Shown here: piece after piece, positions 19,859-24,996 of the stretch
Layout of the letters: every line of letters begins with the position of its first letter
Numbering within the stretch: the first letter of the stretch is position 1
Notes under the pieces: model-generated
What the model was told of the DNA's origin: nothing
The model's database searches: none
What the model saw: only the letters and a program-made list of their open reading frames with translations
Made by a program: the position numbers and the translations under genes
DNA from: an uncultured Acidimicrobiia bacterium
Lineage (GTDB): Bacteria; Actinomycetota; Acidimicrobiia; IMCC26256; JAENVU01
Direction: 5' to 3'
Assembly (NCBI GenBank): GCA_963765075.1
Contig: CAVXVA010000001.1
Location: forward strand, 66,051-130,050
DNA: 64,000 nucleotides

Positions 19859-20443
19859 TCACGACGAACCGGCCAACGAACGCAGCGCGTCGCGCAGGAG
19901 ATCTTCGACCGCGCCTTCGGCCGGGAGCAGCGCAATCGCGGCGCGCACTTCGTCGGGCGCGTAGCCGAGTTCGGTGAGCGCCGCCCGCACCTCCGCTCGG
20001 GCCGGCGTCGGTCCGGTCTCCTCGCGGAGGTCCAGGTCCGGCAGATCGAGGCGAGCCTTCAGCTCGATCATCAGTTTCTGGGCCGTGCGCTTCCCGACGC
20101 CGGGAACGGTGCACAGAGCATCGAGATCGTCGTCGGCCACGGCCCGACGCAAGCCGGATGGGGGCAAGGCGGTGAGGATGGCCAACGCCAACTTGGGACC
20201 GACGCCATTTGCGGTGAGCAGGATCTCGAACGTGTCGCGTTCCTCGCGCGTCGGAAACCCGTACAACGTCATCGCGTCTTCCCGAACGTGGAGATGGGTC
20301 ATCAAGAACGCCGGACCGCCGGGCGCGAGGTTCGCCAGTGCGCTGATCGGCACGAGACAGCGATACCCGACGCCTCCGACCTCGATGAGCACCTCCCCGA
20401 GCGGCGTGCGTTCCAGCACCGTGCCGCGAACCGAGCCGATCAT
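19859..20443 (-). CDS. ruvA: Holliday junction DNA-binding subunit RuvA
   Basis: Distal 194 codons of ORF 19859..21316 from ATG 20443. It reads [32 protein letters not shown], and the HhH motifs [11 protein letters not shown] and [12 protein letters not shown] are present. Confidence 0.9.
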
Positions 20444-20992
20444 CGGGCGTCCCTGGCCAACGCGGCGGCAACGGCGCGCTCGTAGCCGCCCGTCGGGGCG
20501 GTGTCGGCGGCATCGGCGCGGCGAATGCATCGGCGCGGCCCATTGGTGGCACAGCGCCAGGGCGAGCGCGTCGGCCGCATCGGGCGGTTGCGGCACTGCG
20601 TCGAGCTTCAGCAGGCGCGTGACCATCAGCTGGACCTGTTCCTTGTCGGCGCCACCGTGGCCGGCCACGGCCAGCTTCACTTCGTTCGGGCTGTACTGGG
20701 TGACGGGGATTCCGGCCCGGGCGGCGGCCACCAACGCGAGGCCGCTGGCTTGACCCACCGAGATCGCGGTACGAGCGTTGTTCTGGAACAGGACCCGCTC
20801 CACCGCGACTGCACGAGGAGAAAGTTCACGCACGAGGTCTTCGAGTTCCCCGGCCAACTCGGCCAGCCGTTGGGGCAGCGGATCCGCGGGGTCGGTGCGG
20901 ATCACGCCATAACTGACCGCCACCGAATCGGCTCCCCGACCGGCGACGGCGCCGTACCCGCAGCGAGAGACTCCCGGGTCGATCCCGAGCAC
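20440..20992 (-). pseudogene. ruvC: Crossover junction endodeoxyribonuclease RuvC; as sequenced its 3' end runs in frame into ruvA (likely indel between about 20443 and 20545)
   Basis: From GTG 20992 it reads VLGIDPGVSRCGYGAV...AVERVLFQNNARTA...ADKEQV...PPDAADALALALCH. After CHQW the as-sequenced frame gives an Arg-rich string and fuses to ruvA. The +1 frame gives ...[30 protein letters not shown], with a canonical ATGA overlap on the ruvA start. Confidence 0.8.
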
Positions 20993-21005
20993 CGGGCCAG
21001 CATCA

Positions 21006-21021
21006 TCGAACACGAGTTCGT
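21006..21021. promoter_or_regulatory. Candidate LexA (SOS) box upstream of ruvC
   Basis: TCGAAC-ACGA-GTTCGT matches the actinobacterial/Gram-positive SOS box TCGAAC-N4-GTTCGA at 11 of 12 positions. It lies in the 49-nt coxG-ruvC spacer, 14 nt upstream of GTG 20992. Confidence 0.5.
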
Positions 21022-21041
21022 ACTCTAGGTGGCGAGGGTCA

Positions 21042-21809
21042 TCAACGCGCGGACCGCCGTCGACGCCAGAGCCACAGCAGGGCGAGTACCACGGCGATCC
21101 CCACGATCGGCACGAGCCGCTTGACGATCGGGCTCCCGCCCATCTCGAGGAGATCGACCGGAACGGCCTCCGGAGCATCGATGGTTCGCACCGTGATCGA
21201 GTCGGTGCCACTCGACCCGTTCGTCGCCGGTGACCCGCCCGGTGCCCGATCGGCCACGGCCGCGCCCGTCTTCCCCGCGGCGGTCTCCCCCACCACCACA
21301 TCTGCGGTGACGCCAACCGCCGCGACCTCGACGACCTCCGCTTCCGCCACCAGGTCGACCGTCGGACCCGACAGCACGTCGCGTTCGAGGTTCTCGACGA
21401 ACTGGTTCAACAACTTGGCCGAGACGTCCGCCATCACACCCCGACCGAACTGGGCGACCTTGCCCGTGATCGAGAGGTCCGTCGCGACCCGCACGTGTGT
21501 GCCCTCGCCGTCGGGCGCCAACGACATCGTGATGGTCGCACTCGCGTTTCCTTGACCGCGGGTATCGCGCCCGGTCCCCACGATGACCGCGGTGTGGGTC
21601 GTGTCGTTGCGCTCGACGAAATGCGCCGAGCCCTTGTACTGGGCGGTGATCGGACCGACCTTCACCTTCACGATGCCCCGATATTCCTCACCCGCGATTT
21701 CTTGCAGTTGCGCGCCGGGCAGGCACGGCGCGATCCGCTCGATGTCGAGCAGCACGCGCCAGGTCTCCTCGACCGGCAGTTCCACGCGGAAGGAATCCTC
21801 GATCTCCAC
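21042..21809 (-). CDS. CoxG-like SRPBCC protein (carbon monoxide dehydrogenase subunit G family) with a C-terminal membrane anchor
   Basis: 255-aa ORF. The N-terminal 145 aa match the CoxG fold signature (FRVELPVEETWRVLLDIERIAPCLPGAQL...GPITAQYKGSAHF...GKVAQFGRGVMADVSAKLLNQF). A low-complexity linker and a TM helix (LVPIVGIAVVLALLWLW) follow. Confidence 0.8.
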   Translation of the reverse strand: MEIEDSFRVELPVEETWRVLLDIERIAPCLPGAQLQEIAGEEYRGIVKVKVGPITAQYKGSAHFVERNDTTHTAVIVGTGRDTRGQGNASATITMSLAPDGEGTHVRVATDLSITGKVAQFGRGVMADVSAKLLNQFVENLERDVLSGPTVDLVAEAEVVEVAAVGVTADVVVGETAAGKTGAAVADRAPGGSPATNGSSGTDSITVRTIDAPEAVPVDLLEMGGSPIVKRLVPIVGIAVVLALLWLWRRRRSAR

Positions 21810-22390
21810 TAGTGCTCCGTTTCTCGTTCGATCCGGTTCAGGTCATCCGGGGTGTCAATGTCGTCGGGGCGCCCGGTGCCGTCACATGGCACGTCCAGGG
21901 GAACCACCGATTCCATGAGTGCCCGGGCTCCGACATCTCCACGCAGCGTACGCACTTGCGGCCAGAGATCTCGGCCGATGAGCACCGGGTGCTGGCGTTC
22001 GCCGCCGTAGGTGGCGACGGCGAAGTCGGCGCCGGCCGCGTACGCGGCGGCCAGCCGCCGGTACGCGTCGGGGCCGATGAGCGGTTGATCCGCCAGTCCG
22101 ACGCACACGGCACCGACCTGCCGCCATCCCTCGAGCGCTTGTACCAGGGCCCGCAGACTGTGCGCGATTCCCAGGCGAGCCGCGGGCGCCCGCACGACGT
22201 CGACTCCGGCCGGGAGCACCGACTCGATCTTCAAAGCGAACTGGGCCACCACGACCACGATCGGTCGGAGCTCCGATGCGAGGGCCGCGTCGACCGCATG
22301 GCGCACGAGAGGCGTACCACCGAGCGGGGCCACCACCTTGCCCCCACCGAACCGGCGCGCGCGGCCGGCCGCGAGTATTCCGACGGCCAC
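21809..22390 (-). CDS. MocA/YgfJ-like nucleotidyltransferase (molybdenum cofactor cytidylyltransferase family)
   Basis: 193-aa ORF (GTG start). ILAAGRARRFGGGKVVAPLGG is the NTP_transf_3 glycine-rich loop, followed by LADQPLI and a C-terminal DIDTPDDL. Confidence 0.75.
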   Translation of the reverse strand: MAVGILAAGRARRFGGGKVVAPLGGTPLVRHAVDAALASELRPIVVVVAQFALKIESVLPAGVDVVRAPAARLGIAHSLRALVQALEGWRQVGAVCVGLADQPLIGPDAYRRLAAAYAAGADFAVATYGGERQHPVLIGRDLWPQVRTLRGDVGARALMESVVPLDVPCDGTGRPDDIDTPDDLNRIERETEH

Positions 22391-22410: not shown

Positions 22411-23232
22411 TCAGCCGATTGCCTCGAGGGCGCGCCGGGTCAGCACCCGGGCCAGATGGGCGCGGTACTCGGAGGTGGCGTTGATGTCGGCCGACGGATC
22501 GGTCCCCTCGGCCGCGGCCTGGGCCGCGTCAGCGGGACTCGCGCCATTGGTCAACGCCGCCTCGACCGCTCGCGCTCGCAACGGGATCGACCCCATGTTG
22601 ACCAACCCCACGCGCGTCGTCCCACCGGCGCGCACTGCGACGGATCCGACGATCGCCCAGTCCTGGGCCCGGCGGTTGAACTTTTCGTAAGCGAACCCGT
22701 TCGGTCCCGACTTGGGGACGCGGATCTCGCTCAGCAGCTCATCGGGCGCGAGCGCGGTCTCGAGGAATCCCCGGAAGAACTCGGTCGCCGGCACCACCCG
22801 CTCACCCGCCGAACCCCGGATGACGAAATCGGCATCGAGCGCGAGCAGCACGGCGGGCAGATCGCTGGCCGCGTCGCCGTGCGCAACCGAGCCCCCGATC
22901 GTGCCGCGGTGGCGTACCTGGTTGTCGCCGACCTCGGCCGCGACCGCCCGCACGACGCCGCACTCGGCACCAAGCAGGTCGTTGGTCTCGAGGTCCCGAT
23001 GGCGCGTGAGCGCGCCGATCGCGAGGTGATCGCCAGCGTCGCGCACGTACCGCAACTCATCGAGCCGACCGGCATCGACCAGCACGCTCGGCACCGCCAG
23101 TCGCAACTTCATCAGCGGGAGGAGCGACATCCCGCCGGCGAGAATCTTCGCCTCGTCGCCGTGCTCGGTCAGGGTGGCGAGCAACGCGTCGATCGAATCG
23201 GCGCGCACGTAGTCGAACGCCGCGGGGATCAT
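22411..23232 (-). CDS. Molybdenum hydroxylase FAD-binding medium subunit (CoxM / xanthine dehydrogenase subunit M family)
   Basis: ORF 22411..23424 trimmed to ATG 23232 (ATGA overlap with the coxS-like stop). It has [48 protein letters not shown] and the CO_deh_flav_C tail. Confidence 0.85.
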
Positions 23233-23714
23233 TGGGCCGCCTTCGTGGTCCCCGTCTTCATGGTCTCGGCGGCACCGAGCACCGCGGCCACGATGTTCTG
23301 GTAGCCGGTGCAACGGCACAGGTTGCCTTCGAGCCCGAGCCGCACTTCCCGATCGGTGGGGTCCGGGTTCTCGTCGAGGAATCCGACCGCGGCCATGATC
23401 ATCCCCGCGGTGCAGTAGCCACACTGCAGGCCGTGGTGCTCATGAAACGCCTGTTGCACGGCATGCCAGTTCGGTCCATCAGCGAGGCCTTCGATCGTCG
23501 TGACCGTCGAGCCGTCGGCCTGCGCGGCCAGCATCGTGCACGACTTCACCGACTCACCATCGACCAAGACCGTGCACGCGCCACAACTCGAGGTGTCGCA
23601 CCCCACTTTCGTGCCGGTCAGACCGGCCGACTCTCGCAGGTACTGCACGAGCAACATGCGGGGTTCGACATCGTGGCTCTGCGCGGCTCCGTTGACCGTC
23701 ATCGCGATCTGCAT
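23229..23714 (-). CDS. Molybdenum hydroxylase [2Fe-2S] small subunit (CoxS family)
   Basis: 161-aa ORF with both cluster motifs: [12 protein letters not shown] and [11 protein letters not shown]...[11 protein letters not shown]. Confidence 0.9.
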
Positions 23715-23750: not shown

Positions 23751-24215
23751 TTACAACTCGGCCAACACCTTTGCCAGCGCCTTCGGCTTCTTGAAGATGG
23801 CTTTGACCGTGCCTTGGTAGCGATACCGAACGATGCCGGTTTCGTCCACGATGAAGACCGATCGCTTGACCGGCATCGCCTTGTTGCCTTTCACGCCGAA
23901 CGAATCGGCGACGGCGAGGTCGACGTCGGCCAGCAAAGCGAAGGGGAACTCCTCTTTGGCGATCCACTTCTCGTGGGAGTCCACGTCTTGGGGTGAGATG
24001 CCGAGCACGACCGCGCCGGCTTGCTCGAACTCCGCGATGTCATCACGGTACGAGCGCAGTTGGATTGTTCAGCCGGGGGTGAAGTCACCCGGATAGAAGG
24101 CGATGACCACCTTCCGGCCCCGGAACTCGGACAACGTGTAGTCCCGTCGCGTCTGCCCTTCGACTCCGGGGAGGGTGAAGTCAGGGGCGGCGTCGCCGAC
24201 CTCGGGTCCACTCAT
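23751..24215 (-). CDS. bcp: Bcp/PrxQ-type peroxiredoxin with an in-frame TGA (24071..24069) at the peroxidatic Cys position; candidate selenoprotein or nonsense-disrupted gene
   Basis: The ORF track shows only the last 85 codons. Translating from ATG 24215 (GGAAGGA 7 nt upstream) gives [48 protein letters not shown]-[TGA][35 protein letters not shown]... in one frame. This is colinear with E. coli Bcp (FYPKAMTPGCTVQACGLRD). Confidence 0.75.
24023..24055 (-). other. SECIS-like stem-loop 13 nt downstream of the bcp TGA
   Basis: In mRNA sense the fold is GCUCG-UA-CCGUGAU-GAC-AUCGCGG-AGUU-CGAGC. That is a 5-bp lower stem, an internal loop and a 7-bp upper stem with one G.U, capped by a G-containing apical loop about 28 nt after the UGA. 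The G.U pair becomes a C.A mismatch on the opposite strand. Folded by eye only. Confidence 0.35.
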
Positions 24216-24243
24216 ATTGATGTCCTTCCGGTGAGGTCGTCGA

Positions 24244-24996
24244 TCACGACATTGCGGCTTCGAGCACAGACTCGGAGATGTCGAAGTTGGCGTAGACGTT
24301 CTGCACGTCGTCGTGTTCCTCCAGCGTGTCGATCACCCGCAGCACCGACTTCGCCGTCGACGCGTCCTCGAGCGGGACGGTCTGTTGCGGGAGCCGGGTC
24401 ACGTCGCAGCTCAAGAACGCGATGCCCGCGTCTTCGAGCGCGGCGCGCACGGCCGTGAGGTCGGCCGCCGCCGTAACGACCGTCCACGTTTCGCCGTGGT
24501 CCTCGACGTCTTCGGCGCCGGCATCGAGCACTGCGAGCATGAGGTCGTCTTCATCGGCCGCCGACTTCTCGATGAGCACGAGGCCCTTGCGCTCGAACTG
24601 CCACGCCACTGCGCCCGGCTCCGAGAGCGACCCGCCATTGCGAGTGAAGATGTTCTTGACCTCGGATCCCGTGCGATTCCGGTTGTCGGTCAGCGTCTCG
24701 ACCAGCACCGCCACGCCGTGGGGCGCGTAGCCCTCGTAGTTGACCTCTTCGTAGCTGACGCCCTCGAGTTCACCGATCCCCCGCTTGATCGCGCGTTCGA
24801 TGTTGTCCTTGGGCATCGAGGCGTCGCGCGCCTTCTGCACCATGGTCCGCAGCGTGGGGTTCCCCTCGATGTCGCCACCACCCTGGCGGGCGGCAACTTC
24901 AATCTGTCGGGCGAGGCGGGCGAAGACCTTGCCCCGGGCGGCATCGGCCGCACCCTTCGCGTGCTTGATCGAATGCCACTTGGAATGGCCAGACAT
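24244..24996 (-). CDS. yebC: YebC/PmpR family DNA-binding transcriptional regulator
   Basis: 250-aa ORF starting [23 protein letters not shown], the invariant YebC N-terminus. Confidence 0.95.

Follow-up and report, generated by a model that had tools for sequence, protein, structure and literature searches.

The gene at 23751..24215 on the minus strand of the window (the whole stretch analysed here, 64,000 nucleotides (nt) of contig CAVXVA010000001.1 from an uncultured Acidimicrobiia bacterium) very likely encodes a selenoprotein, namely a Bcp/PrxQ-type peroxiredoxin in which selenocysteine (Sec), specified by an in-frame UGA at codon 49, serves as the peroxidatic residue (CP). On the comparative evidence described below, we put the probability of this reading at about 0.88; the doubt concerns mostly the entry of a residue other than Sec at the UGA. 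A Sec-decoded UGA had been proposed from the letters of the window alone, without database searches (hereafter, the sequence-only reading), and that proposal is supported by Cys/Sec pairs among relatives, by selection acting on both sides of the TGA, and by a covarying RNA structure which is found only in the TGA forms.

Read from its ATG (24215..24213), the gene runs in a single frame over 154 sense positions, of which the TGA at 24071..24069 is the sole interruption. A listing of open reading frames (ORFs) yields only two pieces of the gene, a 48-amino-acid (aa) N-terminal piece and an 85-aa C-terminal piece. Re-reading of the sequence and its translation bears out the earlier description of a one-frame, 154-codon gene with a good Shine-Dalgarno sequence and a lone TGA, and alignment also upholds the claim that the TGA stands at the codon of the peroxidatic Cys, since the CP of solved Bcp proteins aligns with it. 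A scan of the window for split ORFs joined by TGA, with a coding-like GC content at third codon positions on both sides, revealed no other credible selenoprotein gene.

With Cys placed at codon 49, the Pfam domain AhpC-TSA (PF00578) covers residues 6–131 of the protein, corresponding to profile positions 1–123 of 124, with E = 4.7e-38 and a score of 130.4 bits (cut-off 26). In NCBIfam, Bcp (NF006960) leads with 98.1 bits, where the cut-off is 140, followed by PrxQ (NF053650) with 81.3 bits, where it is 260; the top matches in the PDB are Bcp proteins, with their CP aligned to the UGA, and the names given by JGI to Cys relatives read 'peroxiredoxin Q/BCP'. On these matches the predicted protein is a complete AhpC/TSA peroxiredoxin, probably of the Bcp/PrxQ branch. 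Residue conservation was assessed over 94 aligned relatives, comprising 48 Sec forms and 46 Cys forms (Table 1). The active-site motif is of the PxxxTxxU type described for Sec-peroxiredoxins (PMC13188914), and the conserved Arg118 lines up with the Arg of the xERSTF/xKRAVF segment in the solved Bcp structures 5enu and 2ywn.

Relatives of the gene were collected by a genome scan, with one genome per GTDB species (64 loci), and a metagenome scan (80 further loci), giving 144 related loci altogether, which are referred to by L numbers where they need to be told apart. The 16 closest loci of the genome scan, all from metagenome-assembled genomes (MAGs) of Acidimicrobiia and 64–95% identical, carry TGA at the identical column without exception; in the genome-scan loci that are no more than 51% identical, which come from Solirubrobacterales and other groups, the column holds Cys and the next residues are TKQFC. 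Among the metagenome loci, 32 of the 80 have TGA and the other 48 have TGC or TGT. TGA is thus present in 49 loci (the window and 48 independent assemblies) spanning about 57–95% protein identity, and relatives under about 65% identity carry TGC/TGT at the CP column, the closest Cys relatives from metagenomes being 57–66% identical to the window protein. The sequence-only reading had suggested looking for Cys/Sec pairs at one column in orthologues, and such pairs are found (49 TGA loci versus 48 TGC/TGT loci). It is this recurrence, and not statistics on a single sequence, which excludes chance; as the TGA is found in many assemblies, it does not depend on the assembly of the window alone.

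Neighbour-joining places the Sec forms in one large clade and two smaller clades, and a clade of Cys forms (L071, L077, L086, L092, and L097) sits inside the large Sec clade. Members of this nested clade read TGC and then S-[ILM]-Q-L-[RK]-S-Y-R-D-D, and the resolving Cys is lacking there too. The simplest reading of the tree and sequences is that the nested clade represents a Sec-to-Cys reversion, accompanied by decay of the Sec insertion sequence (SECIS). The genomes behind three of the loci (L003, L010, and L013), whose Sec-peroxiredoxins are 79–91% identical, are titled 'uncultured Bifidobacteriaceae bacterium' or 'Bifidobacterium breve' MAGs; these loci group with those of Acidimicrobiia, and the labels are probably wrong.

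Substitution rates, calculated for the 19 closest Sec-form genes, reveal purifying selection on both sides of the TGA. The ratio of non-synonymous to synonymous substitution rates (dN/dS) is 0.13 in codons 9–48, before the UGA, and 0.11 in codons 73–152, after it (dS 0.94), with dS near saturation (0.94–1.0) outside codons 54–72. From the TGA up to the first internal start, dN/dS is 0.03 (codons 50–53) and 0.10 (codons 54–72). A wider set of 35 same-length Sec forms gave a downstream dN/dS of 0.74, a value which is probably inflated by unaligned internal indels of divergent clades, and that set was replaced by the 19-gene set. Conservation downstream of the TGA, which the sequence-only reading had named as a check, is therefore present, with a dN/dS of 0.11. 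Purifying selection on both halves, in one frame and in many genomes, indicates that the whole frame is translated and effectively excludes a pseudogene or a base-call error.

TGA terminates 26 of the 36 long ORFs in the window, including that of the upstream yebC gene, and 7 of 16 orthologues of the peroxiredoxin gene themselves end in TGA. Reassignment of TGA was considered and is rejected, given this predominant use of TGA as a stop codon in the window. With TGA a normal terminator elsewhere, read-through at codon 49 must be local and context-dependent.

Two hairpins predicted in the mRNA immediately after the UGA (Table 1) form a candidate SECIS. A bacterial SECIS is expected to form a stable hairpin just past the UGA, with an apical loop about 16–37 nt from it and a G in that loop; by manual comparison, hairpin 1 agrees with these expectations in position, stability, loop spacing, and loop G. 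It begins 13 nt past the UGA, with its loop 26–30 nt past it and a folding energy of about -16.4 kcal/mol, and the loop reads (Y)GAC(A) across the Sec forms, with G31 invariant. The GGUC loop of hairpin 2 lies 56 nt past the UGA. Over the 93 nt from the TGA onward the 49 TGA loci comprise 46 distinct sequences, in all of which the central GU of this loop is invariant, while the flanking loop positions, which are synonymous third positions, are G and C in 44 of the 46.

The same 46 sequences provide evidence of covariation. Standard pairs are formed in 90% of cells over the two hairpins, and 8 of the 19 pairs are altered on both sides; the observed pairing values were not attained in any of 500 column shuffles, and slid registers pair at only 30–49%. 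Within hairpin 1, helices 1 and 2 are paired in 94% and 90% of cells, respectively, with five pairs changed on both sides, and in the two smaller Sec clades the lower stem (GCUCG/CGAGC) has different bases that still pair. In hairpin 2 (helix 3) three pairs are changed on both sides, with C-G going to U-G and to U-A at columns 57/66, C-G to U-A at columns 53/70, and G-C to C-G at columns 54/69, the last apparently in three separate lineages (L009, L085, and L120/L121). The most divergent versions of the element are those of two Sec forms, L120 (1022–1114) and L121 (518–610), which have Asn for Thr after Sec, an AGUU loop in place of GGUC in hairpin 2 (the central GU being kept), and the upper stem of hairpin 1 in another register (CCGUG/CACGG).

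Synonymous positions are constrained over the same stretch. Synonymous diversity drops sharply in codons 54–71, and in the 19-gene set dS is four-fold lower in codons 54–72 (0.25) than elsewhere (about 0.9–1.0). The Cys forms (47 distinct sequences) have no consensus structure over this stretch (alifold 0.0, versus -7.7 in the Sec forms), and in the nested Cys revertants the stems are progressively broken, with L071 keeping hairpin 2 intact and L097 having neither hairpin. This pattern of covariation, constraint, and loss is as would be expected of a SECIS. Either hairpin is a candidate for the SelB site, hairpin 1 having the canonical spacing and hairpin 2 a canonical GGUC-type loop. A bipartite SECIS, with the SelB determinant in the distal GGUC hairpin and the proximal hairpin acting as a structured spacer toward the ribosomal mRNA entrance, is a tentative proposal which we regard as rather doubtful; were it correct, with a SelB site at 56 nt, bacterial SECIS searches using a fixed spacing would systematically miss such elements. 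The two-hairpin candidate could be used to test the spacing rules behind bacterial SECIS predictors.

The Sec forms differ from their Cys relatives at a second position of the active site. The resolving Cys of 2-Cys Bcp/PrxQ relatives lies at +5 relative to CP; this position is Arg in 44 and Ser in four of the 48 Sec forms, and Cys in none. Of the Cys forms, 41 of 46 have the +5 resolving Cys, and the five exceptions are the nested revertants. Moreover, 46 of the 48 Sec forms contain no Cys besides the Sec position, and the window protein is without any Cys. The sequence-only reading had placed a Leu at the resolving-Cys position, which is incorrect, as the Leu is at +4 and the +5 residue is Arg54. 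From its predicted sequence the enzyme is a '1-Sec' peroxiredoxin, comparable to 1-Cys-type Bcp. As it has neither a resolving Cys nor any other Cys, the selenenic acid formed on reaction would have to be resolved by an external thiol. That the gain of Sec in Bcp-type peroxiredoxins requires loss of the resolving Cys, which none of the 48 Sec forms retains, is a tentative idea which we likewise regard as rather doubtful.

By analogy with the standard bacterial mechanism, the mRNA would fold into the two-hairpin region directly after UGA49, and SelB-GTP carrying Sec-tRNA(Sec) would bind an apical loop and deliver Sec to the UGA in competition with release factor 2 (RF2). Translation would then run on to the TAA at 23751, giving a protein of about 17 kDa. 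The selenolate of Sec49 would be expected to reduce H2O2 or organic hydroperoxides, becoming a selenenic acid, and this would presumably be resolved via a selenenylsulfide by thioredoxin, a mycoredoxin-like protein, or a low-molecular-weight thiol. The analysis directly establishes the anatomy of the gene, the Cys/Sec pairs, selection on its two halves, covariation in the RNA, and the absence of a resolving Cys from the Sec forms; decoding by SelB and tRNA-Sec in the source genome, the reductant, and peroxidase activity are inferred.

Some of our observations weigh against Sec decoding or against the proposed structure. A search of the 64-kb window and the 144 related loci brought up no selA, selB, selD, or tRNA-Sec gene. 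Searches of the same sequences with E. coli SelA, SelB, and SelD (tblastn) gave only two weak SelB matches, both to the N-terminal GTPase region (residues 2–122) and both in unrelated loci (L058 and L060), and ARAGORN found no tRNA-Sec in the window or related loci. When single sequences are folded, the stability is not significant relative to shuffles (z-scores of -0.55 to -2.25) in this GC-rich background (GC content 0.66–0.70 throughout the window); the structural case therefore rests on covariation and synonymous constraint. The nucleotide conservation of codons 54–72 derives partly from a very conserved peptide (YRDD..AEFE.AGAVVLG). The 64-kb window contains no tRNA gene and, at gathering thresholds, no match to an Rfam family, SECIS models included, and a search of 23940..24110 (171 nt) at E<=10 gave only chance-level matches (SAH and snoRNAs), with no SECIS or tRNA-Sec. 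Rfam-type SECIS models likewise fail on bacterial coding-region SECIS elements in a 2026 preprint on Actinomarina. Finally, there is at least one 1-nt indel elsewhere in the window (in ruvC, described below), implying that the assembly or the genome is imperfect.

With respect to the absence of Sec genes from the sequences searched, the Sec trait is documented in Acidimicrobiia. In Peng et al. 2016 (PMC5029168, Tables S1 and S2), three members of the class are recorded as SelD+/SelA+/SelB+, namely Ilumatobacter coccineus with 15 known selenoproteins, I. nonamiensis with 10, and Candidatus Microthrix parvicella with 7; Acidimicrobium ferrooxidans is without the trait (PMC5029168). The Actinomarina preprint (2026) reports selA, selC, and selD together with a divergent selB in all 84 complete genomes. 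The view taken in the sequence-only reading, that Sec use is tied mainly to formate dehydrogenase, hence does not hold for Acidimicrobiia, given the 7–15 selenoproteins listed by Peng et al. 2016.

The alternative that has to be weighed most carefully is the recoding of UGA49 to something other than Sec, either Cys, delivered by a SelB-like factor with a Sec-like tRNA, or Trp or Cys through near-cognate read-through. The comparative evidence shows that the UGA is read through with the aid of the downstream RNA and does not reveal which amino acid enters, and no Sec machinery was located in the window or related loci. A Cys-inserting system of this kind, in which the Sec-like tRNA is charged with Cys, is known from some bacteria. 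Against such recoding, codon 49 is the catalytic Cys/Sec exchange site of a redox enzyme, where Trp would inactivate the enzyme, and it is unparsimonious to maintain a UGA and an RNA structure for the sake of a Cys that a single substitution to TGC would provide, a change that the nested clade has in fact made; in addition, the cultured Acidimicrobiia are reported to have standard SelA/SelB/SelD. We therefore consider recoding to another residue improbable.

The two explanations which dispense with recoding altogether fare worse. The sequence-only reading had offered a plain nonsense mutation, or a base-call error of TGC/TGT, as its alternative; a single substitution would suffice to turn TGC into TGA, and the window does hold an indel-type defect in ruvC. 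Yet the same TGA recurs in 48 other independent assemblies at about 57–95% protein identity, dN/dS is about 0.1 at a dS of about 1 on both sides of it, the covarying hairpins are specific to the TGA forms, and a pseudogene would not retain 105 downstream codons intact over such divergence. Recurrence and two-sided purifying selection refute this alternative, which is now scarcely credible. It would be equally far-fetched to suppose that the gene makes two separate products, a 48-residue peptide and an independently started C-terminal fragment (for example, from the GTG at 24008). ORF callers do give exactly these pieces, and public protein collections hold Sec forms only as fragments, such as the 104-aa P0114; however, neither fragment is a complete thioredoxin-fold peroxiredoxin domain, the PxxxTxxU motif would end at the stop, and the frame is identical on both sides of the TGA in 49 of 49 loci. 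Purifying selection is strong in codons 50–69, which separate the TGA from the GTG (dN/dS 0.03–0.10), and two independent products are implausible because of the values found in codons 50–53 and 54–72. Decoding of UGA49 as Sec remains the reading we prefer.

Table 1. Features of the proposed Sec-peroxiredoxin gene and its neighbours in the 64-kb window
Feature	Position	Strand	Details and basis
Sec-peroxiredoxin coding sequence	23751..24215	minus	154 residues (153 standard + Sec49); TAA stop at 23753..23751; sequence and translation
Shine-Dalgarno-like GGAAGGA	24229..24223	minus	Spacer of 7 nt to ATG 24215; read from sequence
UGA codon 49, proposed Sec codon at the CP position	24071..24069	minus	Sequence, translation, alignment
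Active-site motif P42-G-D-F-T46-P-G-U49 (PxxxTxxC/U)	24069..24092	minus	P42, T46, and CP column invariant (n=94)
Arg54, +5 position, resolving-Cys site of 2-Cys Bcp/PrxQ relatives	24054..24056	minus	Alignment
Arg118, conserved catalytic Arg of peroxiredoxins (VKRSVF)	23862..23864	minus	Invariant in 94 relatives
Hairpin 1, candidate SECIS	24023..24055	minus	Stems GCUCG/CGAGC and CCGUGA(U)/(A)UCGCGG; loop (U)GAC(A)
Hairpin 2, candidate SECIS	24000..24020	minus	8-bp stem closing a GGUC tetraloop (24012..24009)
yebC/TACO1-family gene, directly upstream	24244..24996	minus	PF01709, PF20772; its TGA 28 nt before the peroxiredoxin ATG
coxS-like [2Fe-2S] gene	23229..23714	minus	
coxM-like FAD-binding gene	22411..~23232	minus	
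MobA-like nucleotidyltransferase gene	21809..22390	minus	
coxG	21042..21809	minus	

The gene is set within the conserved actinobacterial block pdxS-pdxT-yebC ... ruvC-ruvA-ruvB, and co-transcription with yebC is possible. The gap between the peroxiredoxin gene and ruvC is filled by the coxS-like, coxM-like, MobA-like, and coxG genes; none of the scanned ORFs encodes a recognisable molybdopterin large subunit. In L001–L003, as in the window, the coxS-like gene starts (MQIAMTV) directly after the peroxiredoxin gene. In the window, ruvC and ruvA appear as one ORF of 485 aa (19859..21316, minus strand). DNA alignment reveals one extra C in ruvC, at about 20521, relative to L001 and L003, which fuses ruvC into the ruvA frame, whereas in L001 and L003 the ruvC stop TGA overlaps the ruvA ATG (CGATGATCGG). 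The extra C leaves the last ~27 ruvC codons frameshifted in the window, and it is either an assembly indel or a real mutation; a remark in the sequence-only reading about indels elsewhere in the window is thereby confirmed.

The gene described here is a new, unannotated case, although Sec-peroxiredoxins and the use of Sec by Acidimicrobiia are both already documented. The earlier suggestion that it would be new for the lineage was accordingly an overstatement, TxxU peroxiredoxins being common and Sec use in Acidimicrobiia having been reported. Among the matches P0001–P0120 from a collection of 5.8 billion clustered proteins there is no full-length Sec form; the best full-length ones are Cys forms, no more than 66% identical, and the 104-aa P0114 is a C-terminal fragment, 86% identical. 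The presence of Sec forms only as fragments in this public collection indicates that the gene is routinely mis-called, being truncated at the UGA, and proteomes of Acidimicrobiia would thus understate both their peroxide defence and their dependence on selenium. Current concepts are not changed by the finding. What it contributes is a clade of Bcp-type 1-Sec peroxiredoxins that is widespread in freshwater and soil, a nested Sec-to-Cys reversion included. The clade offers a clean natural series in which to ask what Sec gives a peroxiredoxin and why the resolving Cys goes.

PrxU of Eubacterium acidaminophilum is an experimentally demonstrated Sec-peroxiredoxin, and the window protein is likewise a predicted AhpC/TSA-fold peroxidase with Sec as its peroxidatic residue. 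It belongs, however, to another subfamily and is about 80 residues shorter (154 residues versus a model of 233 positions); with 68.8 bits against an equivalog cut-off of 270 for NF040737, it is ruled out as a PrxU orthologue. The closer likeness is to the Cys-type Bcp/PrxQ proteins (NF006960; 5enu, 2ywn/4g2e, 3hjp, 3drn, and the Xanthomonas Bcp 3gkk; E 2e-24 to 1e-17), which are of the same length and in which CP, Thr, and Arg are aligned, and from which the window protein differs by having Sec for Cys, Arg at +5, and no Cys anywhere.

The candidate SECIS resembles those of fdhF (E. coli) and fdhA (Moorella thermoacetica) as a coding-region hairpin directly 3′ of the UGA, with a spacing for hairpin 1 of 13 nt compared to 11 nt in the minimal E. 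coli element, and the loops of the fdhF and fdhA elements resemble the GGUC loop of hairpin 2. It differs from both in having two conserved hairpins instead of one, and in the location of the hairpin 2 loop at 56 nt, which is beyond the 16–37 nt range of bSECISearch.

The T-x-x-U peroxiredoxins (PF00578) are an established prokaryotic selenoprotein family (PMC13188914, a 2026 AEM review). Zhang et al. 2006 described 12 Sec-peroxiredoxin proteins and five Cys-to-Sec conversions, and Peng et al. 2016 (PMC5029168) counted 91 TxxU peroxiredoxins in 78 organisms, making this the seventh commonest selenoprotein family. The papers searched contain no description of a Sec-form Bcp/PrxQ or of a Sec-peroxiredoxin from Acidimicrobiia. 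Unlike the members catalogued in those papers, which are mostly from Deltaproteobacteria, Clostridia, and similar groups, the proteins described here form a large clade (49 loci), all without the resolving Cys. The window protein nevertheless has the same Pfam domain, the PxxxTxxU motif, Sec for the peroxidatic Cys, and a predicted coding-region hairpin directly after the UGA in common with the TxxU family, which arose repeatedly by Cys-to-Sec conversion, and the generic definition of that family covers it.

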